From an uncultured Myxococcales bacterium (GTDB lineage Bacteria > UBA10199 > 2-02-FULL-44-16 > JAAZCA01), in contig CAYPII010000004.1 in assembly GCA_964410765.1 (NCBI GenBank), positions 1 through 49,234 on the forward strand: DNA of 49,234 nt, in the 5' to 3' direction. Shown here in pieces: positions 4,085-29,434 of this stretch; position 1 is the stretch's first letter, and every line of letters begins with the position of its first letter. A program made the position numbers and the translations under genes. A model generated the notes under the pieces. The model was not told where the DNA came from and ran no database searches. It saw nothing but the letters and a program-made list of their open reading frames with translations.

Positions 4085-4362
4085 TTCTTATCCGACGCTG
4101 TAAAAAAACCCGTTTCCGATCAACGATCTGCAGGAAAAACCTGTACAACCGCTTGATATCAAAAAGTTTTCCTGTTGCGGACCGGGGGCCCCATCGGTTT
4201 ACGATACGGATACATGGGCTCCAGGGGGCGTCTGCAGAGCCCTTGCCGCGTATCAGATGGTCCCGTGAAGGGCAAGGGATTTGCGGCGAAGAAGGACACA
4301 ACTTTTTTCGCGAATACGCGAAAAAGAGGCGCTGGCAAGGACAACGGTCTCCGGGAGGACCC

Positions 4363-6912
4363 ATGGCGAAGATCTCGAGCGAATTCCTCAAAGAGCTGCA
4401 GGGGCCGATGTGCGGAAGCGCGGCCTTCACCGAGGACGACCCCTGGTGCGCAGCCAATCCGGAGCCGATCGAATTCGACGACTATCTCGACGGCACCGGG
4501 ACGAAGTACCTCGACATCCTCCCCACCTGGGAGGAGGACGCCGTCCGCTTCTGTCGGCAGTTCGGCCGGACGCCGGAGCTCTTCGACGAGGCGCGCCGCT
4601 GCACGCCGCTGGGGACGGATGTCGCAACCGAACTCAACCGCATCATCGCCGCCCTCCCCGGTCCATCGGGCACAACGCCGCCGGCAGCGCCGTTGGATGC
4701 AGCGGGAACGGCAACCGCCCCCGTCGAGATTCCAACGCCATCGCAGATCTACGTCCTCCTGCGCCGCACGCAGCTCCCCCCCCAGAGCTTTGACGATCTC
4801 TTCCGTGCCCGGGCGCAGTCCATCCATGACCAACTTCAGCGGATCGCGCAGCTGAAAAAAGCCGGCGATCCGGGCCTCGACGCGGCAGTCATGGACTTGC
4901 AGGAAAAACTCTCGCACGTCTGCGTCGTCTCCGATCCCGAGGCCCTGCGGAAGATCAACGATGCCTGCGGGCGCGTAATCGCAACGCACGACAACATGAA
5001 GACGTGGTACCAGAAGGGGATTGCAGCGATCACCGGTTTGGGGGGCAGCATCTGGCTCTCGATCAAGATGGGGTGGCTCCCCAAGATGTGGACGGCGGGG
5101 AAGAACCAGTGGAAGGCCTCGCGAACAATCGACCCGAAGACGAAGAAGCCGGTCGAGGGCAAGCTCATGGCGGCGCTCAAGACGATCGGCGCCTTCTTCC
5201 GAATGCGCGATCCCTATGCGCCGCAGCAACCGCAACAGCCGCAGTATCCCTATCCCGGGCCGTATGGACCGTACAATGGGCCCTACATTCCGCCGTATAC
5301 CCCACCGACAGGACAGGGGCAGCAACCGCCCCCGGGGACCTCTCCCGGAGCGGGTGGTGCGATGCCGCCGACGGCGGGGAGCAGCACCCCCTGGAGCCCA
5401 TCATACCCGACCGGCTCGCTTCAGGTCCCGATCGAAGGGATATCGCAGGCGGACACCGGCCTCATCTACACGGATGATATGCGCGTCTCGGAGTTGCGCC
5501 AGACGGCGACAGCGGTCATCACCGCATTCGACCACCTCGCACAGCATCCCCAGAGCAGCGCGGCGCTCTCCGAACGGGCCACGGTGCTCCGGGAGAGCCT
5601 GGAACGGACGGCCTACATCGACGACCGTTCCGCCCTCGTCGAATTGATGCCACTGATCATGGACGAAAAGACGCTCGGGAGCTTCGAGGCCTTCATCGAA
5701 TCCTACACGCGCTGGATCGCGACGGAGCGCTTCGTAACGGTGGCCGCGCTGGCTAAACGCGGGCTGGGAGAGCTCGCCGAAGACGAGACCGCAGAGCTGC
5801 AGACGATCCTTGAGGAAGCGAATGAAGCGATCGGTACGATCCGGACGTCGGCGACGGAGATCGGCTACCTGATCAATCATCTCGGCACCGCAATTGGACG
5901 CATGGAGGAGGTCTTCTCCGTCACCGCCGAACAACGCGATCGCCATATCAAACTGCTCAAGCGGTGGACGGCCGGGCTGCAGGACGCCGGCGGACTGATG
6001 CACGATGTGAACAACGTCACGCAGCGGCTGGAGGGGAATATCCAGCTCGCGCATCGTCGGCTCGATCGGACCGCACTCGTTCAGGGACACCTGGAGGACT
6101 TGAGTCAGTACGATCTTTCGAACCTGCGCTTCACGCTCGATTTCGTCACCAAGCTCCATCGCCGCTTCGCCGAGGAGCGCCAGGTCGAGATCCGCGTAGG
6201 GGATGCGGCCGAGCTGATGATCCCGGATGAGGGCTCCCTGCGCTTCGACCTCTTCCGCATCGTCAACGAACTGGTCACGAATGCGATCAAGTACGCCAAT
6301 CCTGCCGAAACGGCGGTCAGCTACGTCGAAGTTCGGACGGAGCGCGAGGGCGATCTCCTGCGTATCATCGTGGAGGACAACGGCGTCGGCATCAGCGACG
6401 TCGAAAAGGTCCTCGCCTCCGGCGTGCGCGAACAGCCGGAGCTCGCCGAGGGCGACGGGGAGGGGCTCACGATCGTCCAGCGCCTGACCCAGGAACACGG
6501 CGTGGCGTTCCGGATCGAATCGACGGTCGGGCAGGGGAGCCGGATCACCCTCGAGAAGAACATTTCCGGATGGACGCCATCGCCTGGCGGCGGTTCGACG
6601 AACGGTACCGCCGGGGCGGGAAGCGATGGCGAGATGCCGATCGGTGGCAGCGCATCAATCGAAACGCACGAGGCGCGCGACATCGCGCTGGGCCGATCGC
6701 GCTTTGCGGGATTCGCGGATGTGGAGCAGAGCTCCGACCCAATGAGCGATGCGGCGATCCCCTTCTCTCTCCTCCAGGATGACGCAACCAATCCGCTGGG
6801 GATCGAAACCCCGGGTGCGATCGATGCCGCGACCGGCGTCCATCTGGGCACCGGCGTCTTCGTCGGCGTACCGAGTCAGACCGCCCGCCCGACCGCTGCA
6901 AGCGCACACTGA
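4363..6912 (+). CDS. Atypical histidine kinase: orphan N-terminus, Pro/Gln-rich linker, HATPase_c domain and FAGF tail
   Basis: H-box LMHDVNN, N-box ELVTNAIKY, G1 VEDNGVGI, G2 GDGEGLTIV; start MAKISSE follows SD GGGAGG. Confidence 0.8.
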   Translation: MAKISSEFLKELQGPMCGSAAFTEDDPWCAANPEPIEFDDYLDGTGTKYLDILPTWEEDAVRFCRQFGRTPELFDEARRCTPLGTDVATELNRIIAALPGPSGTTPPAAPLDAAGTATAPVEIPTPSQIYVLLRRTQLPPQSFDDLFRARAQSIHDQLQRIAQLKKAGDPGLDAAVMDLQEKLSHVCVVSDPEALRKINDACGRVIATHDNMKTWYQKGIAAITGLGGSIWLSIKMGWLPKMWTAGKNQWKASRTIDPKTKKPVEGKLMAALKTIGAFFRMRDPYAPQQPQQPQYPYPGPYGPYNGPYIPPYTPPTGQGQQPPPGTSPGAGGAMPPTAGSSTPWSPSYPTGSLQVPIEGISQADTGLIYTDDMRVSELRQTATAVITAFDHLAQHPQSSAALSERATVLRESLERTAYIDDRSALVELMPLIMDEKTLGSFEAFIESYTRWIATERFVTVAALAKRGLGELAEDETAELQTILEEANEAIGTIRTSATEIGYLINHLGTAIGRMEEVFSVTAEQRDRHIKLLKRWTAGLQDAGGLMHDVNNVTQRLEGNIQLAHRRLDRTALVQGHLEDLSQYDLSNLRFTLDFVTKLHRRFAEERQVEIRVGDAAELMIPDEGSLRFDLFRIVNELVTNAIKYANPAETAVSYVEVRTEREGDLLRIIVEDNGVGISDVEKVLASGVREQPELAEGDGEGLTIVQRLTQEHGVAFRIESTVGQGSRITLEKNISGWTPSPGGGSTNGTAGAGSDGEMPIGGSASIETHEARDIALGRSRFAGFADVEQSSDPMSDAAIPFSLLQDDATNPLGIETPGAIDAATGVHLGTGVFVGVPSQTARPTAASAH

Positions 6913-6950
6913 CCATCCTCGCGCTGCGGTGCAACGAACGCGATCGACCA

Positions 6951-7334
6951 GGGGACGGGCCTGTGGGGGTCCGTCCCCGATCTGTTTTCAACGATGTTCC
7001 AGAGCGCTCTTCTCTGCATTCGCGACGGGCGATGGGGGTTCGCAAAAACATCGCGCGGTGTGACGGGGGCTCTCGGGCCTGTCCCGCTCGGAACGGCGGC
7101 TCGGCTCAGGTGCCGCCTCCGCCGCCTGACACTCTTCGCGCCGGGCATCTTTCGGCTTGGATCCGGCGCTCATCGAGTCTCCCCGCGCAACAGCCCCTGC
7201 GCCCCTGATGTCACACCGCGTTCGCGACGACAGACGAAGGGGCGATCCCCCAGCGCCCGTCGCGGATGATCCGGGAGAGCCCCGTCACACCGCTGCAAAC
7301 AAATCGGGGACGGGCCCCTGCGGGGTCCGTCCCC
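6951..7334. repeat. ~384-bp intergenic element with terminal REP-like hairpins and nested inverted repeats (MITE/BIME-like)
   Basis: GGGGACGG..CCGTCCCC hairpins at 6951-6978 and 7306-7334; 6971-6987 is complementary to 7297-7313 (1 mismatch); internal IR 7055-7077 / 7271-7293. Confidence 0.65.
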
Positions 7335-7339
7335 TCTTT

Positions 7340-7753
7340 TCATTCGTGATGGTTCGAACGGACGGGGCGGCGGCGGGACTTCTTCTCCGACTGCTTTCGC
7401 TTCTCCTCCAGCACCTTCTCCTTCGCCCGCTTCGATCGCCGCTTCTTCTGCTTGCGAATCTTCCAGCGACGCTTCGCCGCGACGCTCCGGCGCTTGTGGA
7501 GGCGCTCCTCCAGGCGTTCGGCCAGGCGACGGCGCGCCATAAAGCGGTTCATCGCCTGACTGCGCTCGCTGTCGCACTTGATCTCGATACCACTGGGACG
7601 GTGAATCAGGACGACGCCGGTGGAGCTCTTGTTGACGTGCTGTCCGCCGGGTCCACGCGATCGAACGAACTGCTCCTCGAGCTCTTCCTCGCGCACTCCC
7701 AACTCCGCGAGGCGTTCCTCGAGCTGCCGCCGCTTGGCCACGGAGATGGGCAC
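7340..7753 (-). CDS. arfB: ArfB/YaeJ-like peptidyl-tRNA hydrolase (ribosome rescue)
   Basis: FVRSRGPGGQHVNK, ERSQAMNR, basic C-terminal tail. Confidence 0.85.
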   Translation of the reverse strand: MPISVAKRRQLEERLAELGVREEELEEQFVRSRGPGGQHVNKSSTGVVLIHRPSGIEIKCDSERSQAMNRFMARRRLAERLEERLHKRRSVAAKRRWKIRKQKKRRSKRAKEKVLEEKRKQSEKKSRRRPVRSNHHE

Positions 7754-7759
7754 GAAGGA

Positions 7760-7918
7760 TCAGTCCCCCATGACGATCGTCAACTCGCCGCTCTTCTTGT
7801 CGACGAGGACGACGCTATAATTCCCATCCGGCTGGCGCCCGGTGCGCACGGCGTACTTCTGGGTAAAGAAGATGAAGAGGGCGACGAGCAGGATGAGGAT
7901 CAGGATGAACTTCTTCAT
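7760..7918 (-). CDS. Small membrane-anchored or secreted protein (52 aa)
   Basis: MKKFILILILLVALFIFF hydrophobic N-terminus; strong SD AAGGGAGG. Confidence 0.7.
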   Translation of the reverse strand: MKKFILILILLVALFIFFTQKYAVRTGRQPDGNYSVVLVDKKSGELTIVMGD

Positions 7919-8027
7919 GGCACCTCCCTTTCTGGCGGGCATTATACGGATGGCGGGAAAAGAAGCAATGCGTTGAGCGAAATGCGAAAAGGATGTGGGT
8001 GTTTCGCGAAACAGAAAACAGGATGTT

Positions 8028-8119
8028 TGGCGGAGGGGGTGGGATTCGAACCCACGGACCTCCTTTCGAAGGTCAACGGTTTTCGAGACCGCCCCGTTCA
8101 ACCGCTCCGGCACCCCTCC
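8028..8119 (-). tRNA. tRNA-Ser(CGA)
   Basis: GGAGGGGTG..., anticodon loop CT-CGA-AA, long variable arm, GGTTCGAATCC, encoded CCA. Confidence 0.96.
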
Positions 8120-8152
8120 GCCAAACAGCCCATCAGATCGCTGCGGACCCTC

Positions 8153-8240
<88 letters not shown>

Positions 8241-8433
8241 GCCGAACGCCCGCCCTGTCAGAGAACTGGCGCAGAGGCCGCTCCAGAGGCCTTTCCGCGC
8301 TTGACTCCCGCGCGCAACGCCGTATGGAGGAGAGGGCGCGGGGGCGGATATACAGCATACCCGCCCTTCGGGTGCAACTAGAAATAGGGCCAAAATATGC
8401 GTTTTTCAGGCGGTTTTCGGCACCCTTTTCCGC

Positions 8434-8460
8434 GAAACTTTCTCCCTCGCGCGCCGATAA
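8434..8460 (+). promoter_or_regulatory. sigma28/FliA-like promoter
   Basis: GAAACTTT-N11-GCCGATAA (consensus TAAAGTTT-N11-GCCGATAA), 10 nt before the ATG at 8471. Confidence 0.7.
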
Positions 8461-8470
8461 CGGACTGACC

Positions 8471-10606
8471 ATGGATATCACCGACATCCGGATCACCGAT
8501 CTGGCACAGGAGCCCGTGCATGCATGGGTCAGCCGCATCGTCGAGGCAGCGGCGGCAATCGGCCGCGCCGACGATGCAAGGGCGATCGACCGCCTGCGCG
8601 ATTTTCTGGCGACGCCGCGCACGATCATGGATGCCGAGGAGGCAAACGCGCTGGAGGAGGACATCGTCCAGCTCTACCGACGCACCGTCCGAGGCGGCGT
8701 GGATGTCCTCCGCCTGGAACACCAACGCTTCGCAAAACAGTTCGACCGCTTTCAGGAGAGCGGCACCGTTGTCATAGAGGACAGTTGGGGCGAGCTCTCG
8801 CTGCGCAATCCGCCGAATGTGACGCTTACGGATGAAGAACTCTTCAGCGCCTACCCGGATATCGGCACCACGGCCCAGCAACTCACGTGGCGCGCCGGCG
8901 GACATGTCGCCACTTTCTCGAGCCCCTTTGTGCAGACCCACCTCGACGGCCTGCGTTCGCTTGCCGAGGAGATCGATCGCATCGGTCTGGAGCACCCGAT
9001 CGAGGCGCGCCGCACCCTCCACCGCATCAACAAACGCCTGCTCCTCATCGACCGCCTCCTGCACACGCCCCCCGATGTGATTCCCCAGGAGGCCATCGAA
9101 GCCATCGAGGCAATCGGCCTGGCCCTCTCCGACGAGACGGTCTTCGTCGGCGATGAGGCACCGATCAAGATGCTCTATCAGGTCATCAAGCAGTCCATTA
9201 CGGAGAAGCGCTTCGATGCCGACCTCATGCGTGCGATCATCGAGACCCGCCTGCGAATCCTGGAGGGGCATCCGGACGGACCGCTCGTCGACCCAATGCA
9301 TGTCATCGATCCCGTAAACGACAACCCCCGTTTGAATCAACAGCACATCGAACACCTCGTCACGGAACTGCGCACCGTGGTCGAACGGTATCGGGCCGAG
9401 GGTCGCCACATGCCGCTCGAAGACCTCGCCACCACCGCGATCGAACCCTCGCCCCTCTCCCACACGCGCGAGAAATTCATCCGGAGGGGAGTGGAACAGG
9501 TCGAGGATCCGGCCTTCTGGCTCGGCGTCGATGTCGCCGAAGGATACCTGCGCTCGGAGACTCCCCGAAACGCCCTCCTCGCTTTGGAGCTCTTCGAATT
9601 CAGCGCCTCCTATTCGAAGGCGATCCTGCTGATGGCGGCCTTTCGGATGAAGGTGGGAAGGGAGAGCACCCTCTTCACGCAGACGATCGTCCCGACAATC
9701 CTGGAGTCCTTCATCAACGACTTCCGCATCGGCTGGCTGATCCAGCAATTCGATGCCCGGCGCCAGGAGAAGGGAGAAGCGAATCTTCCGTCGGAGATCG
9801 TGGAACGTCTCCCGGAACGACTGGAACAACTGCTGTCGGAGGAACGTCCGATCCATCTCGAGTTCGGCGGCGGCATGACGCCGGACGGCATCCGCATCGC
9901 CCATCGCCGCCCCGAGGGCATCGTGCTCTCCATCGATCCCTTTGTGCAGCACGTCGTCTCCCCGCCAAACGCCTTCTCCCCCCCTCCCCTGAATTTCGAA
10001 CGCGTCCACGGCTACGCCGAGGAGCTCGTCCCCTTCGGCTCCTTCGCCGAAAGCGCGGTTGCGGTCGCGCCGCATCCGGATAATGCGCCGTTCATGCTCC
10101 TCGCAGCCCTGCTCACCGTGCAGCCGGGGGGAACGGTCGACTTCTATCTGTTCCGGAAGGAAACTGACCTGCAGGAGCTCGCACGCTCCTTCGGCTATGC
10201 GACCGAGACGATGCGCATCGCGGCCGGCGACGAGGACTTTCCGATGAGCACCGCCTTCCGGCAGGAGGCGGAGGTCGAACGACTGCGCATCCGCATCCCA
10301 TACCGCACACCCCCGGTCGAGGGGCCTCCCCCCTATCGGAGGCGTACGCCCCAAACGGAAGACGATTCCTCGGGAGGGGCCTCGGCCTCCGACGCCACCG
10401 TGACGCGCAGCGCTTCGCACTTCGCCGGTTTTACCGAGGGTGAAACCGCACAGACGATCGACACCTCGACCTGGCTCATGCTCGTCGGGGAAGAGGAACC
10501 GACGGCACTCGAAACCACGGTGACAGACGGGACGCTCCCCCTTCCTTCGGCAAGGGGAGCGGCGCCGGCGGCGAGCACCGCAGCGCGCCCGATCACGCCG
10601 AAGTAA
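8471..10606 (+). CDS. Orphan protein with a degenerate class I SAM-methyltransferase-like domain and FAGF tail (711 aa)
   Basis: IHLEFGGGMTPDGIRIAHRRPEGIVLSIDP resembles motifs I/II of TrmB-like MTases; LLTVQPGGTVDF resembles motif VI. Start chosen from paralogy with 10617 and to avoid the tRNAs. Confidence 0.75.
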   Translation: MDITDIRITDLAQEPVHAWVSRIVEAAAAIGRADDARAIDRLRDFLATPRTIMDAEEANALEEDIVQLYRRTVRGGVDVLRLEHQRFAKQFDRFQESGTVVIEDSWGELSLRNPPNVTLTDEELFSAYPDIGTTAQQLTWRAGGHVATFSSPFVQTHLDGLRSLAEEIDRIGLEHPIEARRTLHRINKRLLLIDRLLHTPPDVIPQEAIEAIEAIGLALSDETVFVGDEAPIKMLYQVIKQSITEKRFDADLMRAIIETRLRILEGHPDGPLVDPMHVIDPVNDNPRLNQQHIEHLVTELRTVVERYRAEGRHMPLEDLATTAIEPSPLSHTREKFIRRGVEQVEDPAFWLGVDVAEGYLRSETPRNALLALELFEFSASYSKAILLMAAFRMKVGRESTLFTQTIVPTILESFINDFRIGWLIQQFDARRQEKGEANLPSEIVERLPERLEQLLSEERPIHLEFGGGMTPDGIRIAHRRPEGIVLSIDPFVQHVVSPPNAFSPPPLNFERVHGYAEELVPFGSFAESAVAVAPHPDNAPFMLLAALLTVQPGGTVDFYLFRKETDLQELARSFGYATETMRIAAGDEDFPMSTAFRQEAEVERLRIRIPYRTPPVEGPPPYRRRTPQTEDDSSGGASASDATVTRSASHFAGFTEGETAQTIDTSTWLMLVGEEEPTALETTVTDGTLPLPSARGAAPAASTAARPITPK

Positions 10607-10616
10607 CGCAACCGAT

Positions 10617-13592
10617 ATGGATATCCGCGACCTCCAGCTTGCCGATTTTGCCGATCCCGCCGTGCGGCTGTGGGGAAGACGCGTCCTCATGCAGTCGGAA
10701 CTCGCCAACCTCGCCATCCCCGACGAAAACGCTTCGCTCTCCCGAGCGCTGGATTCGCCCTGGTACTATGGACCCACGGAGGCAGCGGCGATCCGACAGC
10801 AATTCGTCGATCTCTACGAGCGGGTCGTGGGACGATCCTCCGGACACGCGCTCGACATCGGCCGGCAGTCCTTTCCGGGAATAACACGCCTCTTCGCTCC
10901 CCATGTCCACGCTGCGGGGGGACGCTCGCTCGCCTCGCTCACCGACGACGCCCTCTTCGCGCGCTACGGCGATGTGGCCATCGCTGCGGAACACCTCTTT
11001 CAGCGTGCCGGCCACCTCGCCGGAGAATGCCCGCAGGAGACGATCCGAAGAGAGCTCGACGCAATCGCCCGGCTGCTGACGGCGATTGCCGAACGGGGCC
11101 GAGACCGCCCAGCGCTTGCGCGACAGTTGCTCGCGCGCGCCGAGGGGCGCATCATGCAACTCGAGACGCATCTGAACATGTCCGCAGCGTCCCGCGAGGC
11201 ATCGCTGCCGCTCCCACCAATCGACGGACTCGAAGGGGAGGGCGTGGCGGACTGGCAACGGCGCTTCGGAAGTGCAATTCCCCCGCCGACATCGTTCGAT
11301 CCGGCTGCGGATCGCGCCCTCGCCGCCGCCGCCGATCGTTTCCGCGAAGGGCGCAATCAGGTGTATGAGGAACTGGTTGCGTCGTCGCTCCAGGCGAGGA
11401 TGACCGAACAAGAAGTTGCGGAGGCAATCGCACAGACCGAAGACCCCTTCTTTTCCAATGCCGTCGACTCCATCTCGACACAGCTTGAACACGCAGCCCC
11501 GAACGCAGCGCTCGGTTTCCTCCGCACATTTTCACTCCGCTCCTCCTACGCCGGAACAATTCTTCTGACCGCCGTCGCCGAGCGGCGCTTCGGCCGCAAC
11601 AGCAATCTCTTTCAGGAACAGCTTAAGCCCCCGTTGCTCCGGGGCCTCGCCGGCGACCGCCTGCCTCCGGCGGAATGGGAGGAAGCACCGCAGGATGCAT
11701 CGCTGTTGCCGGAGAAGCTCTCGCTTCTCCTCGAGCAGGCGAAGCGTACCGGTCAACGCATCCATCTCGAATTCGGCGGCGCAACCCATCCGCAAGGGGC
11801 GATGATCGCGACCCAATATCATGATGACATGGTGATCTCGATCGACCCCCAGGCAAACAAAATCCTCTGGCGGAACTTGGTCGTCGTCCACGCACCGAAC
11901 AACTTCTTCTTCCTGCGGGGCTTCGCGGAAGAGGCCGCCCTCTTCGCCCACGATGACCCGTTCGCGGAGAGCGCCACGATCGTCCATCCGCAGGCCTACA
12001 ACCTGCCGCGGCTTCTGTTCTCGGCGCTGCTCTCCGTCCGTCCCGGGGGAACGATCGACCTCTATCATCGTTCCCTCGAAACGCCGGAGTATATGTGGCG
12101 GGAGGATGTCGCCTGGTTGGAGGAGCTCGGCGCGACGATCGACGTCAACACCTTCTCCTGGGACCGGTATGAGGGCCCGCACGCGGGCCAATTCGTAGAG
12201 GGGGAGGAGATCGTTCACCTCCGCATCACCGTCCCGGCGCTCGATACAAATGCAGCGGGAACGCCGGATGGCACCAACGGTTCGGAGGACCAGGCGACCG
12301 GGCCGCTGCGAACGATCTCCGGACCATCGGCGGCGGGGCATTCCGCACAGGAGGCCGCCCGCAAACGCATCCCGGCGCTTACCGCGCAACTCCAGAGCGA
12401 ATTCGACTTCCGTCGCGCAACGCGGCAACAGCTTCCCATGGAGGAACGTGTTTTCCGACGCGACATTCTTCGCGATAATGACCGGGATTGGATCCCCGAA
12501 CAGCGACGACTCGAGCGGCCCGGCGCCGACCGCCTCTTCGACGATGCGGCCGAACTCGTGGGCCTGCACCTCCATACGGAGACACCGGAGCACATCACTC
12601 CCCTGCTCGAAGGTTTTGCACTCCCGAAGAACTATGAACGGGCGATCCTGCTCTCGGGGGCCTACGCCTTTCGCGTCGGCGCGGAGAGCGATCTCTATCG
12701 AACACTCTTCTATCCGGCAATCGTCCGGCCGATCATCTCCTATCTCCCCCGTCCGGAACCGCTGGCCTTCGAAGATGCTCTCGTCCCGCCCGTGGAGGCG
12801 ATTTTTCCCACACTGCTCGCGACGGCGGAACGGGAAGGACGGGAGATCCATCTGGAATTCGGCGGCTTCATGACGCCCGACGGCATTCGCATCGCCAATG
12901 AGCAGCCGGAGCTGCTCGTCGCCTCGATCGATCCGACGGCGAGCACCATCGTGAAGGAGTTGATTCCCGCCACCGCACAATACGAAAACTTCATCCACCT
13001 GCGCGGCGATGCGGAGCGGATCGCCCCCTGGGCTGCCCTGAATCCGTTCGCCTCCAGCGCGTCGATCGTCGCCCCCTCCCCGGCAACCCTGGATGGCTTG
13101 ATGCTCTCCGCCCTGCTCGCCGTACGGCCGGGGGGAACGATCACGATCTTTTCCCTCGAACGCGAGAGCATGGATATCCCCTTTCTGCATCGTTTGAATC
13201 TTCCGGTCGAACAGCGTTCCTTCCGATGGTCATTGCAGGAGGGACCCTACAGCACTTACCTGCGGGAGGGGGAGATCGTCACCCGGACGGACATCCGGGT
13301 CCGTGCGTTCGGAGAAACGGGAATGGGCTCGCCGCCGCTGGAAGGGACGGACGATGCAAAATCGAGCGCGATCCCAAACACGCCGGCCGGAAATGCGGCG
13401 AGCGCGGCACACTTCGCGGGCTTCGCGGATGATCCGACCACAGCATCGCCCTCGATCGCTCTCCAGATCCTGCTCCAGGATGGCGGGAACGAGAGCGAAC
13501 CCCTCCTCGATGTCGCAAACGCCCCGGCGGCGCCCTTCCCCGCCGCAGCCGCCGCCCGTATTCGCCCGACGCATCTGCCCAAGGCGAAGTAA
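10617..13592 (+). CDS. Paralogous orphan protein with two tandem MTase-like modules and FAGF tail (991 aa)
   Basis: IHLEFGG...SIDP and VRPGGTI each occur twice; N-terminus MDIRDLQLADFA resembles MDITDIRITDLA. Confidence 0.8.
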   Translation: MDIRDLQLADFADPAVRLWGRRVLMQSELANLAIPDENASLSRALDSPWYYGPTEAAAIRQQFVDLYERVVGRSSGHALDIGRQSFPGITRLFAPHVHAAGGRSLASLTDDALFARYGDVAIAAEHLFQRAGHLAGECPQETIRRELDAIARLLTAIAERGRDRPALARQLLARAEGRIMQLETHLNMSAASREASLPLPPIDGLEGEGVADWQRRFGSAIPPPTSFDPAADRALAAAADRFREGRNQVYEELVASSLQARMTEQEVAEAIAQTEDPFFSNAVDSISTQLEHAAPNAALGFLRTFSLRSSYAGTILLTAVAERRFGRNSNLFQEQLKPPLLRGLAGDRLPPAEWEEAPQDASLLPEKLSLLLEQAKRTGQRIHLEFGGATHPQGAMIATQYHDDMVISIDPQANKILWRNLVVVHAPNNFFFLRGFAEEAALFAHDDPFAESATIVHPQAYNLPRLLFSALLSVRPGGTIDLYHRSLETPEYMWREDVAWLEELGATIDVNTFSWDRYEGPHAGQFVEGEEIVHLRITVPALDTNAAGTPDGTNGSEDQATGPLRTISGPSAAGHSAQEAARKRIPALTAQLQSEFDFRRATRQQLPMEERVFRRDILRDNDRDWIPEQRRLERPGADRLFDDAAELVGLHLHTETPEHITPLLEGFALPKNYERAILLSGAYAFRVGAESDLYRTLFYPAIVRPIISYLPRPEPLAFEDALVPPVEAIFPTLLATAEREGREIHLEFGGFMTPDGIRIANEQPELLVASIDPTASTIVKELIPATAQYENFIHLRGDAERIAPWAALNPFASSASIVAPSPATLDGLMLSALLAVRPGGTITIFSLERESMDIPFLHRLNLPVEQRSFRWSLQEGPYSTYLREGEIVTRTDIRVRAFGETGMGSPPLEGTDDAKSSAIPNTPAGNAASAAHFAGFADDPTTASPSIALQILLQDGGNESEPLLDVANAPAAPFPAAAAARIRPTHLPKAK

Positions 13593-26294: not shown

Positions 26295-26984
26295 TCATTC
26301 GCCGTCGGTTCCCTCCGGCCGGACGGGATTGAACTCGTGCCTCTGCGGAATCCGTTGCACCGCTGGCGGCATGTCCGTGTTATCCCGGTGGAGATGCACA
26401 TCGGTCGGGATGTTGCGAATATCGTACTCCTCGCAGACCGAGACGACGATGCGATCGGCGACCGCCGCGGGACCGGCGATCTCCGCGATCATCGTCGGCT
26501 CCTCCTCCTTGAGCTTCGGCCGCAGCGCGTAGCTCGTCACAACACCCTCATCCTCATGACGGACCGCGATCGCCGGGCTCTCGGGAATCGGTTCGAAGCC
26601 GGCGCCCGCCCATTCGAGCAGCTCGTCGAGCGAGATCATCGGCTGCACCGGCGCCTCGAAGACGATCGTGGCCGTCCCCTCGTCGGCGATCAGCTGCGCT
26701 CCCTCGCCATCCGCCACCACGTCGGCGGGAAGCGATGTGCGGAAGCAGAAACAGTGCTTGGCAAAGCGGCAGTCCTCGCCCACCGGACGCACCACGTCGC
26801 CCTCCTCCTCCGTCGGGTTGCCGACGCCGGTGCCGGCGACGACGATGTCGGTCTCGTCCGGGGCGCCTTCGTCACCCTGTGCGCCACCGCCCATCCCCGC
26901 GCCCAATCCGCCGCCGGGCGTGCAGCCCGCCAGGGCGATGAGGAATGCAGCGACGATCAAGAGGATTGAGAGTCTATTTCTCAT
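26295..26984 (-). CDS. Putative lipoprotein
   Basis: Lipobox LAGC after a hydrophobic leader; GTGVGNP motif; overlaps the stop of the upstream gene. Confidence 0.8.
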   Translation of the reverse strand: MRNRLSILLIVAAFLIALAGCTPGGGLGAGMGGGAQGDEGAPDETDIVVAGTGVGNPTEEEGDVVRPVGEDCRFAKHCFCFRTSLPADVVADGEGAQLIADEGTATIVFEAPVQPMISLDELLEWAGAGFEPIPESPAIAVRHEDEGVVTSYALRPKLKEEEPTMIAEIAGPAAVADRIVVSVCEEYDIRNIPTDVHLHRDNTDMPPAVQRIPQRHEFNPVRPEGTDGE

Positions 26985-27798
26985 GGCGCACCTCGCTTAA
27001 GGGAAAGAACTGAATGTTCAGCTGATAGACGCTCTCGTGCTGCGTCGATTCCGAGAGGTCGGCGTGCAGCTTGCGGTGAAACTCCTGGATGCGGCGCTTG
27101 GCCTTCTCGAAATCGTCGCGGGAGATGGCGACGGTGAGCGCCGAGAGCTCCCGATCGCGCGAGTTGACGAGATCGAGCGACTCCGCCGAGCGCTGCATCA
27201 TCTCGCGATGGAATTTCCACGCCGCCATAGCGGCGATCTCCGCCGGCGTCCCGATGTTGCGGTCGACCTGCTCGTAGCGCCCCTTCGCGATCCTGCGGAT
27301 GAGGCCGAGGCGCAACAGCAGCTCCATCGCCTCGTGCGCCGCCTTCATCGTGATGTTGGGCGTGAGCGTGCGCGCGATCCACTCCGGGTCGTCGGAGAAG
27401 TCGGGCAACAGCACCAGCTCGCGCACGGCGGCGTAGTACCACTTCGAAAAGTATTCGTACTGATCGTGTTCCAGGTGTTTGAGGGCGATGTACTTCTTCG
27501 AGGCGTTGAGCTTCTCGAAGTAGTACTGCTTCTGCTCTGTCTTCTTCGCCTGGTTCATGAGGACGAGATTTTCGAAGAACTCGCGCTCCGCCCCCTTGAA
27601 CTTGAAGTAGTCGACGAGCTTCGCCATCGAAGCGGGGCTCACGTTGCGGCGCCCCTCGATGATGAGCTGCATGTAGTTGGGCGACTTGAAGCCGGCGCGC
27701 TTCGAGACGGCGCGCGCCGAGATGCCGCGGTCCTTGCGCTCCTCGATGTAGTCGGCGAGGAATTGACGGTAGTCGAGGTATTCGAAGATCGTCTTCAC
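26974..27798 (-). CDS. TIGR02147 family (DUF4423) HTH protein
   Basis: IFEYLDYRQFL, AGFKSPNY, WYYAAVREL, FHREMM, VYQLNIQFFPLS; GTG start after GGAGG. Confidence 0.9.
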   Translation of the reverse strand: MKTIFEYLDYRQFLADYIEERKDRGISARAVSKRAGFKSPNYMQLIIEGRRNVSPASMAKLVDYFKFKGAEREFFENLVLMNQAKKTEQKQYYFEKLNASKKYIALKHLEHDQYEYFSKWYYAAVRELVLLPDFSDDPEWIARTLTPNITMKAAHEAMELLLRLGLIRRIAKGRYEQVDRNIGTPAEIAAMAAWKFHREMMQRSAESLDLVNSRDRELSALTVAISRDDFEKAKRRIQEFHRKLHADLSESTQHESVYQLNIQFFPLSEVRHEK

Positions 27799-27861
27799 GC
27801 CTGGGCCTCCCCGCAAATCCTCGCCCCGCAAGGATTCGCGCCGTTACCACCCTCTATCCTG

Positions 27862-27877
27862 AGCAAGAAATATGCCA
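27862..27877 (-). promoter_or_regulatory. sigma54 -24/-12 promoter
   Basis: Minus strand TGGCATA-TTTC-TTGCT upstream of the TIGR02147 gene. Confidence 0.7.
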
Positions 27878-27938
27878 CCCCCGCCCCATTCTCGCCAAAA
27901 GCGATTTGAAATCAAACGAGAATTCCCCTTCCTCCTCA

Positions 27939-27967
27939 TTATCGGCCGGTTGCAAGGTAGGAGTTTC
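27939..27967 (-). promoter_or_regulatory. sigma28/FliA-like promoter
   Basis: Minus strand GAAACT-N15-GCCGATAA. Confidence 0.55.
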
Positions 27968-29407: not shown

Positions 29408-29434
29408 TTATCGGCAGCGGGACCCGTGAGTTTC
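29408..29434 (-). promoter_or_regulatory. sigma28/FliA-like promoter
   Basis: Minus strand GAAACTCA-N11-GCCGATAA, 19 nt before ATG 29388. Confidence 0.7.

Follow-up and report, generated by a model that had tools for sequence, protein, structure and literature searches.

Peptide tails shared by otherwise unrelated cargo are known as a kind of trafficking signal, and such tags, among them the C-terminal domains (CTDs) of the type IX secretion system (T9SS), XVIPCD, MIX and LXG, are the most productive handle for effector discovery. Here, we describe a C-terminal tail carried by three proteins encoded in a 49,234-nucleotide (nt) contig from an uncultured Myxococcales bacterium (CAYPII010000004.1; the whole contig is called the window) and by other proteins of the same genome. 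The tail fits no described family, nor the machinery that is usual for C-terminal signals. With a probability of about 0.4, it is a modular export or loading signal on an effector-like set of proteins, most likely acting via an injectisome-like type III secretion system (T3SS).

An earlier note, made from the letters of the window alone, had claimed that the tail is unlike known tags, and this holds for each of the classes compared. Substrate signals of type IV secretion systems (T4SS), namely the positively charged end of VirB/D4 substrates, the acidic E-block of Dot/Icm substrates and XVIPCD, resemble it in lying at the extreme C-terminus of cargo without a Sec signal, in being unstructured, with a basic end behind an acidic block, and in being attached to many unrelated effector bodies. 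The tail differs in its sharply conserved aromatic motif fixed about 60 residues from the end and in matching none of these sequence families. In addition, the genome gave no match to VirB4 (PF03135) or the T4SS coupling protein (PF02534), Dot/Icm-specific models not having been run. Type I secretion system (T1SS) signals also occupy the last ~50–60 residues in unfolded form, on cargo that may be very large. Here, by contrast, the end is basic rather than hydrophobic, the 21 tail-bearing proteins lack RTX repeats and adjacent ATP-binding cassette (ABC) or membrane fusion protein (MFP) genes, and the best match to T1SS-type HlyD (TIGR01843) in the genome scored 28.5 bits against a cut-off of 208.65; the ABC and TolC components were not searched.

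The T9SS CTD (Por_Secre_tail) is likewise a tag of ~70 residues at the C-terminus of diverse cargo. It is a folded β-sandwich on Sec-dependent cargo of Bacteroidota, whereas the tail has no predicted fold, no accompanying Sec signal and no Pfam or NCBIfam match. Tripartite signals (PEP-CTERM, GlyGly-CTERM, MYXO-CTERM, LPXTG and PGF-CTERM) share with it the order of motif, hydrophobic patch and basic cluster, but the tail lacks both the transmembrane (TM) helix and the N-terminal signal peptide and is ~60 residues long rather than 25–35.

In type III export, chaperones bind at substrate C-termini in the pairs FliS–FliC, FlgN–FlgK/L and FliT–FliD, and a second CesT site lies in the C-terminus of Tir. 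Late flagellar substrate genes are controlled by sigma-28, and the C-terminal-binding chaperones dock at the export gate. A disordered C-terminus, here a predicted one, and a link to sigma-28 recur in the tail proteins, although those binding regions serve one or a few substrates and are not a single motif on some 20 unrelated proteins. By analogy, flagellar export chaperones that bind substrate C-termini would be the nearest mechanistic precedent.

For Myxococcus, the available portions of two reports propose that a needleless T3SS (T3SS*) and the Kil Tad-like system act together, name no identified effectors, and record T3SS-like systems with no known effectors among environmental predators (PMC12075869, PMC12428579). 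As far as those portions describe it, that arrangement is matched here by a non-flagellar T3SS-like apparatus and a Tad-type secretin in an environmental bacterium, whereas the SctJ-like and SycD/LcrH-like proteins of the present genome suggest a more injectisome-like system.

Results

The tail family within the genome

The earlier note had read three tails of about 60–70 amino acids (aa) containing FAGF, each after a Gly/Ser/Pro-type linker. All three were recovered at the same positions (Table 1). They measure 61–71 residues, counted from two before the motif to the stop, and follow linkers of 60–65% G/S/P/T/A. A tail profile hidden Markov model (HMM), the check proposed in that note, was run against all 23,854 stop-to-stop open reading frames (ORFs) of at least 50 aa in the draft genome (G000; 2,348,487 bases, 229 contigs, 96.55% complete and 2.17% contaminated, with the window as contig C4). 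The source habitat is a microbial mat according to the labels of the metagenome runs, which belong to one study; all runs listed as containing the sequence are of DNA, none of RNA. The profile matched 18 canonical proteins with E values of 1e-10 to 1e-18, every match ending 0–5 residues from the stop, while the same 23,854 ORFs reversed gave no match at E≤10. The similarity is thus far above chance, and an origin of the tails by chance or low complexity was rejected on the reversed-ORF result. Three additional tails (C27, C137 and C28 minus strand) have inserts between motif and basic end. The family therefore comprises 21 proteins rather than three, all with the match at the extreme C-terminus and with diverse, mostly orphan bodies.

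Two members are fragments at contig ends, and three tail genes stand in a row where contigs C186 and C65 abut. C186:2307–2678 and C65:3–332 share 16 identical residues and form one protein of ~213 aa (orthologue P0004). Several tail genes lie at contig breaks, possibly as a result of strain differences there.

The tail opens with the motif [SA]-[RH]-[FW]-[ARL]-G-F-x-[DE]. Next come an acidic stretch, within which lies a short Leu-rich (LL) patch, an Ala/Pro-rich stretch and a basic end that often includes A-R-P. In 18 of 18 canonical tails, the net charge is −3 to −11 in the acidic middle and +1 to +4 over the last 12 residues, and the motif F lies 57–69 residues from the C-terminal end. Ser and Thr are abundant in the tails. 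G/S/P/T/A residues make up 57–78% of the linker in 15 of the 18 canonical proteins and 28–50% in the remaining three. The tails are coding, with a GC content of 0.79 at third codon positions versus 0.59 at second positions. A translated DNA repeat was considered and rejected; blastn similarity between tails extends over only 17–31 nt, at the motif.

Searches of the 18 tails against Pfam and NCBIfam (E≤10) gave no family, only three isolated matches to unrelated models (best E 0.054). AlphaFold (AF2), run on the 18-row tail alignment, returned a mean predicted local distance difference test score (pLDDT) of 62 and a predicted template-modelling score (pTM) of 0.18, with no secondary structure. 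The tail is predicted to be a disordered peptide carrying short conserved motifs. A full-text literature search turned up no description of such a tail.

The absence of a Sec signal peptide and of a TM anchor, asserted in the earlier note for the window proteins, extends to all 18 tail proteins with a defined start as judged by hydrophobicity windows. No 19-residue window reaches a Kyte–Doolittle (KD) value of 1.5 in any of them, and their first 40 residues lack a hydrophobic core (maximum KD10 ≤1.52), the N-termini being polar and unremarkable. Sortase- or exosortase-type signals and Sec-dependent routes therefore do not fit. Separate Sec-signal proteins of the same genome end in a hydrophobic helix followed by RRRR, similar to GlyGly-CTERM or MYXO-CTERM (C1, C7, C49, C67 and C192); the tail thus exists alongside a conventional system for C-terminal sorting.

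Bodies and modularity

Pfam placed five of the 21 bodies over the cut-off (HATPase_c, pentapeptide repeats, TPR in two and HAD hydrolase). One further body had a below-cut-off match and 15 had no Pfam family. Apart from two paralogue pairs, the bodies are mutually unrelated, and one member is 2,707 aa long. Within the window, BLASTP detected zero similarity between the kinase-like protein and proteins 2 and 3 when the tail was excluded, in agreement with the earlier note. Proteins 2 and 3 are paralogues with a repeated domain, present once in protein 2 and twice in protein 3. Neither belongs to a Pfam family, and NCBIfam agrees with Pfam on all three window proteins. Protein 2 has a single homologue (80% identity) among 5.8 billion clusters. 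A related-locus search with the kinase, excluding this genome's own records, returned only three unrelated HATPase proteins.

The repeated domain had been called methyltransferase (MTase)-like in the earlier note. As modelled by AlphaFold from protein 2, it has a pLDDT of 66 overall and 75–91 across most of the Rossmann-like part. Foldseek matched the model to class I S-adenosylmethionine (SAM) methyltransferases (best E 3e-8, template-modelling score TM(target) 0.55–0.60), the top matches being 16S rRNA A1408 MTases of the KamB/NpmA type and the tRNA m7G methyltransferase TrmB. Its ESM Atlas neighbours are also class I MTases (0.90), and the alignment shows a GxGxG-like 'LEFGGG' and 'SIDP'. 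On the strength of the Foldseek and ESM Atlas matches, the name is right at the fold level. No Pfam, NCBIfam or PDB-sequence match was obtained for the domain, and its profile found nothing at E≤1 among the sequences of solved structures. The bodies of proteins 2 and 3 are thus predicted to adopt a Rossmann-like class I MTase fold, a statement that holds at the fold level and implies no sequence-family membership. That the substrate may be RNA is a testable guess from the closest solved folds. The wider suggestion that the tail proteins are built from repurposed enzyme domains stands for the five Pfam-assigned bodies and the MTase-like fold, but not for the 15 bodies without a Pfam family or the one below the cut-off.

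Comparison of orthologues and paralogues shows the tail behaving as a swappable module. Between the orthologues P0013 and C5_5051, identity is 86% over the tail but 32% over the body; the tail of orthologue P0017 is a chimera of the tails from two neighbouring genes; and a paralogue on C50 stops exactly at the point where the linker of its tailed relative starts. Median GC at third codon positions (GC3) is 0.81 for tail genes versus 0.86 for the genome (p = 2e-5), the comparison set being crude and GC3-filtered.

These bodies bear on the possibility that the proteins stay in the cytoplasm, where the tail would recruit them to a scaffold, a compartment, an FHA-domain protein or a polar hub, or act as a degron. 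An HK-type ATPase, an MTase-like fold, HAD and TPR are ordinary cytoplasmic domain types, and FHA proteins and a Ser/Thr kinase are encoded beside T3SS genes while the tails offer many Ser and Thr residues. Such a role is nevertheless improbable. Lineage-restricted orphans with lower GC3 and reshuffled tails are typical of interaction or effector genes and not of housekeeping regulation, the 2,707-aa member would be an unlikely compartment cargo, and the variable end residues match no degron known to us.

Secretion machinery

Machinery was inventoried by six-frame family searches of the genome, in which several T3SS matches fell below curated cut-offs. The T3SS core is spread over four contigs, C72, C42, C19 and C21 (Table 1). 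Its best matches are mixed, some flagellar-like (FliG_C, FliM, FliH and FliK) and some injectisome-like (SctJ, SycD and YscD/FHA). The best NCBIfam match of the TPR protein on C19 is the SycD/LcrH chaperone model, below the cut-off. A FliA/WhiG-like sigma factor lies two genes away from the SctJ-like gene; its four best NCBIfam matches are all FliA/WhiG models, at 135 bits versus a cut-off of 189.6. Flagellin and rod or hook proteins were not found in the genome, nor were the type VI secretion system (T6SS) sheath and the sheath of phages or extracellular contractile injection systems (eCIS). Neither a T3SS-type secretin nor a translocon was identified in it, and no needle was identified either, although no search was aimed at the needle. 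The three secretins present resemble those of the type II secretion system (T2SS), type IV pilus (T4P) and Tad types, and the genome also has a T2SS.

Forty relatives were searched, 12 from the same family, nine from the same order and 19 from the same class. FHIPEP was found in 39 of the 40 and flagellin in two, and the cytoplasmic domain of SctV is 79–94% identical across 20 sampled relatives of the class, which is unusually conserved at that depth. On these grounds, the non-flagellar T3SS-like system is highly conserved and class-wide among the sampled relatives.

A Ser/Thr kinase with PEGA domains (C42:9515–11644, plus strand) adjoins sctU, and FHA/PEGA/TPR proteins adjoin sctV (C72:2964–4112, minus strand; 6574–8838, plus strand). 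The presence of neighbouring kinase and FHA genes hints that the T3SS apparatus may be under phospho-dependent control.

The same inventory bears on whether the tail might be an export signal for an unrecognised machine, either a divergent T4SS or T1SS, a Tad or T2SS-like system acting with the T3SS, or something new. The known unstructured C-terminal signals of ~60 residues that end in charged residues are those of T1SS and T4SS, and the genome has Tad-type and T4P-type secretins and a T2SS. A joint action of T3SS* and a Tad-like pilus has been proposed for Myxococcus in the available portions of the two reports cited above (PMC12075869, PMC12428579). Against such a machine, VirB4, the T4SS coupling protein and an over-cut-off T1SS-type HlyD were not found in the genome, the bodies have no RTX repeats, and no transporter gene recurs beside the tail genes, none of which is adjoined by ABC or MFP genes. 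We regard an unrecognised machine as improbable.

Distribution in relatives and a second version of the tail

The 18-tail profile gave no match in the 40 relatives. Among 1,835,955,588 representative proteins, only 17 matched, ten of which are from this genome and seven of which are close orthologues in another assembly. Weak matches of the profile in G001 and G005 (E 0.05–0.4) were inspected and set down to chance; one of them is presumably a DUF488-like protein.

Distant homologues of the kinase-like protein are present in 11 of the 40 relatives, eight of these among the 12 of the same family. Seven were inspected, and in all of them the ATPase domain is followed by a Gly/Ser linker and 50–125 residues of non-conserved extension. 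In G005, which represents another genus of the family, the homologue ends '...EARRFGGVASS...KKLLVDSNESD...KTTGGK'. When G005 was searched with this tail, two unrelated proteins were found to share the ending. A three-row profile then gave nine matches, all of them in G005; G000 and the 39 remaining relatives had none. All six new matches carry [KRE]-R-F-G-G-[VI], and the variant as a whole reads RRFGG[VI]A. In the five with a stop on the contig, the motif lies 52–65 residues ahead of that stop and Lys and Arg are abundant at the end; the contig of the sixth breaks off within the gene. The motif F lies 56–67 residues from the C-terminus in the six full-length proteins of the G005 lineage that were checked. 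The bodies differ and, where their full length is seen, have neither signal peptides nor Pfam families.

The tails of the two genera are collinear: both run from R-F-x-G over about 20 residues to an LL/LI patch with acids and finish in a basic end. A joint profile matched 22 times in G000 and 12 times in G005, with one marginal match in G003 and none elsewhere. From this profile and the collinear alignment, the tail occurs in two or more of the ten family genera covered by the search, in genus-specific sequence on a shared plan, which is an unusual pattern. Versions in the other genera may have diverged past detection, or those genera may have no tail. The tail of the G003 kinase homologue matches only itself in G003. 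In a control with single G000 tails as queries, 0–8 of the 17 other tails were found, and five of the 18 queries found none; because single-tail queries so often miss known family members, the G003 result is uninformative.

Divergence of this kind is also what might be seen if the effectors were delivered by ordinary N-terminal T3SS signals and the tail served afterwards, docking the proteins onto a common structure or protein, either in the target cell or at the producer's surface. The tail is disordered with few conserved short motifs, and it varies by genus, as if tracking a changing target, while SctV_C stays 79–94% identical. Its swapping between bodies resembles the terminal reassortment of effectors, and the N-termini are polar without signal peptides. 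Docking after delivery is all the same rather unlikely. An extreme C-terminal placement, a constant distance of 56–69 residues to a basic free end in two genera and a linker that is always present would be expected rather of a signal recognised at the terminus, and no eukaryote-like motif was rigorously matched.

Promoters

According to the earlier note, the two loci follow GCCGATAA-type sites, one exact and one degenerate, and both were found. The exact site (8453–8460) is the −10 half of GAAACTTT-N11-GCCGATAA, which we take to be the sigma-28 (FliA) promoter architecture, the consensus presumably being of the TAAAGTTT-N11-GCCGATAA type; the degenerate site is that at 4300–4323. AAC-N15-CCGATA occurs 53 times genome-wide versus five to seven times at spacings of 12–14, 18 and 19; spacings of 16 and 17 gave 20 and 28. 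This sigma-28-type promoter is in use at about 80 sites of a genome with no detected flagellin. Many of the sites end only 0–25 nt upstream of a predicted start codon, suggesting that the mRNAs have short leaders or none.

With a relaxed −10 element ([CG]CGA[TA]A), six of the 18 tail genes qualify, including the kinase gene. The other 12 have no motif or lie inside operons, several as second genes. The odds ratio of the enrichment is ~11 (p = 0.001, on crude gene calls), and the enrichment is real but partial. The co-regulation put forward in the earlier note therefore survives as this enrichment, but not as a regulon of tail genes only, the ~80 sites including those of genes for Sec-signal proteins. 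Upstream of the G005 tail genes, AAC-N15-GCGATA was seen by eye in two of three examined, and a weaker TCGATT in the third.

A CCGATA-like string just before 10617 overlaps the start codon and is probably due to chance, since the gene starts 11 nt past the previous stop. The gene for protein 3 is probably co-transcribed with the preceding gene for protein 2. Elsewhere in the window, copies of GCCGATAA lie at minus-strand positions 29415, 27946 and 1312. A multi-copy family of ~275–300-aa proteins (window ~26975–27950, minus strand; contigs C16, C96, C107 and C27), with the motifs I-Y-x-Y-L-D/N-Y-R at the N-terminus and Q-L-N/I-N-h-Q-h-F at the C-terminus, is repeatedly downstream of a sigma-28-type promoter.

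Features of the locus

Positions in the window and on the T3SS contigs are collected in Table 1. Between the genes for the kinase-like protein and protein 2 lie a small GGQ-motif protein, release-factor- or ArfB-like by eye (7340–7753, minus strand), and two tRNA-Ser genes (8028–8119 and 8153–8240, both minus strand). An ORF-finder ORF at 7157–10606 runs through this region; the real gene is the portion from 8471.

Table 1. Positions of the tail genes, their promoters and the T3SS genes (C4 is the window)
Contig	Position	Strand	Feature	Details
C4	4300–4323	+	Degenerate sigma-28-type promoter	AAC-N15-GCGAAA; 39 nt upstream of kinase start
C4	4363–6912	+	Kinase-like protein, 849 aa	HATPase_c, linker and tail
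C4	6247–6555	+	HATPase_c of kinase-like protein	aa 629–731; Pfam, E 9e-16
C4	6697–6909	+	Tail of kinase-like protein	SRFAGFAD ... ARPTAASAH; FAGF 6703–6714
C4	8436–8460	+	Canonical sigma-28-type promoter	GAAACTTT-N11-GCCGATAA; 10 nt ahead of ATG at 8471
C4	8471–10606	+	Protein 2, 711-aa orphan	One MTase-like domain (modelled nt 9398–10330) and tail
C4	10415–10603	+	Tail of protein 2	SHFAGFTE ... AARPITPK; FAGF 10421–10432
C4	10617–13592	+	Protein 3, 991 aa, paralogue of protein 2	Two MTase-like domains (nt 11346–12266, 12567–13346) and tail
C4	13407–13589	+	Tail of protein 3	AHFAGFAD ... IRPTHLPKAK; FAGF 13413–13424
C72			FHIPEP/SctV	Adjoining two FHA/YscD-type proteins
C42			SctU	
C19			FliH/SctL, SctN, FliK/HpaP-like, FliM-like, SctRST, TPR protein	SctN 616 bits
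C21			SctJ-like protein, FliG_C-like protein, sigma factor	SctJ model outscores FliF model

Discussion

An export or loading signal is favoured because the tag is portable, terminus-anchored and disordered, is carried by orphans partly under sigma-28-type promoters, and occurs in a genome with one recognisable one-step exporter, the T3SS. In the mechanism that we propose, a portable, disordered C-terminal targeting peptide would present the R-F-x-G motif, the acidic and Leu-rich stretch and the basic free end ~60 residues on. About 21 lineage-specific, effector-like proteins, made in the cytoplasm and mostly orphans, would be marked by it either for export or for loading onto a machine that delivers them. 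This machine would most likely be the injectisome-like non-flagellar T3SS, the sole dedicated cytoplasm-to-outside protein exporter found. The presence of a FliA-like sigma factor in the T3SS cluster and of sigma-28-type promoters at part of the tail genes is counted for this link. The reader of the tail would more likely be a fast-co-evolving, lineage-specific adaptor or chaperone than the conserved gate, because SctV is 79–94% identical in 20 sampled relatives of the class and the tail is genus-specific.

Several observations weigh against this assignment. To our knowledge, every T3SS signal studied so far is N-terminal, and C-terminal secretion signals are linked to T4SS. Profiling of co-occurring secretion machinery, as suggested in the earlier note, yielded a non-flagellar T3SS, but of a class that classically reads N-terminal signals. 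T4SS was excluded by two family models and T1SS by one, in a draft that is 96.55% complete. Tails were detected in two of the ten family genera and in none of the 28 relatives outside the family, while the T3SS is found in 39 of 40; since so few T3SS-bearing relatives have tails, the tail is no general requirement of the T3SS, unless the others are too diverged. The promoter also serves genes for Sec-signal proteins, and of the 45 strict-motif sites with a downstream ORF, four precede tail genes and 41 do not. In most orthologue pairs, the tail is conserved no better than the body.

A stronger form of the proposal is that the R-F-x-G tail with its free basic C-terminus constitutes an unrecognised class of export signal, which would route sigma-28-controlled orphan effectors via the non-flagellar T3SS or an undescribed exporter. 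We consider this somewhat unlikely.

In two genera of an uncultured lineage, the tail picks out between nine and 21 candidate effectors per genome. If it serves export or loading, it would either widen the range of signals that a T3SS reads or indicate an exporter not yet known, and would supply the first effector repertoire for a T3SS found in 39 of 40 relatives of an uncultured class, together with a compact peptide as a candidate delivery tag. Because its sequence diverges by genus and its plan is conserved, the tail offers a natural experiment in which co-evolution could lead to the receptor. Were its role to lie after delivery or within the cell, it would still be a clean and hitherto undescribed case of one disordered module recombined onto unrelated proteins.

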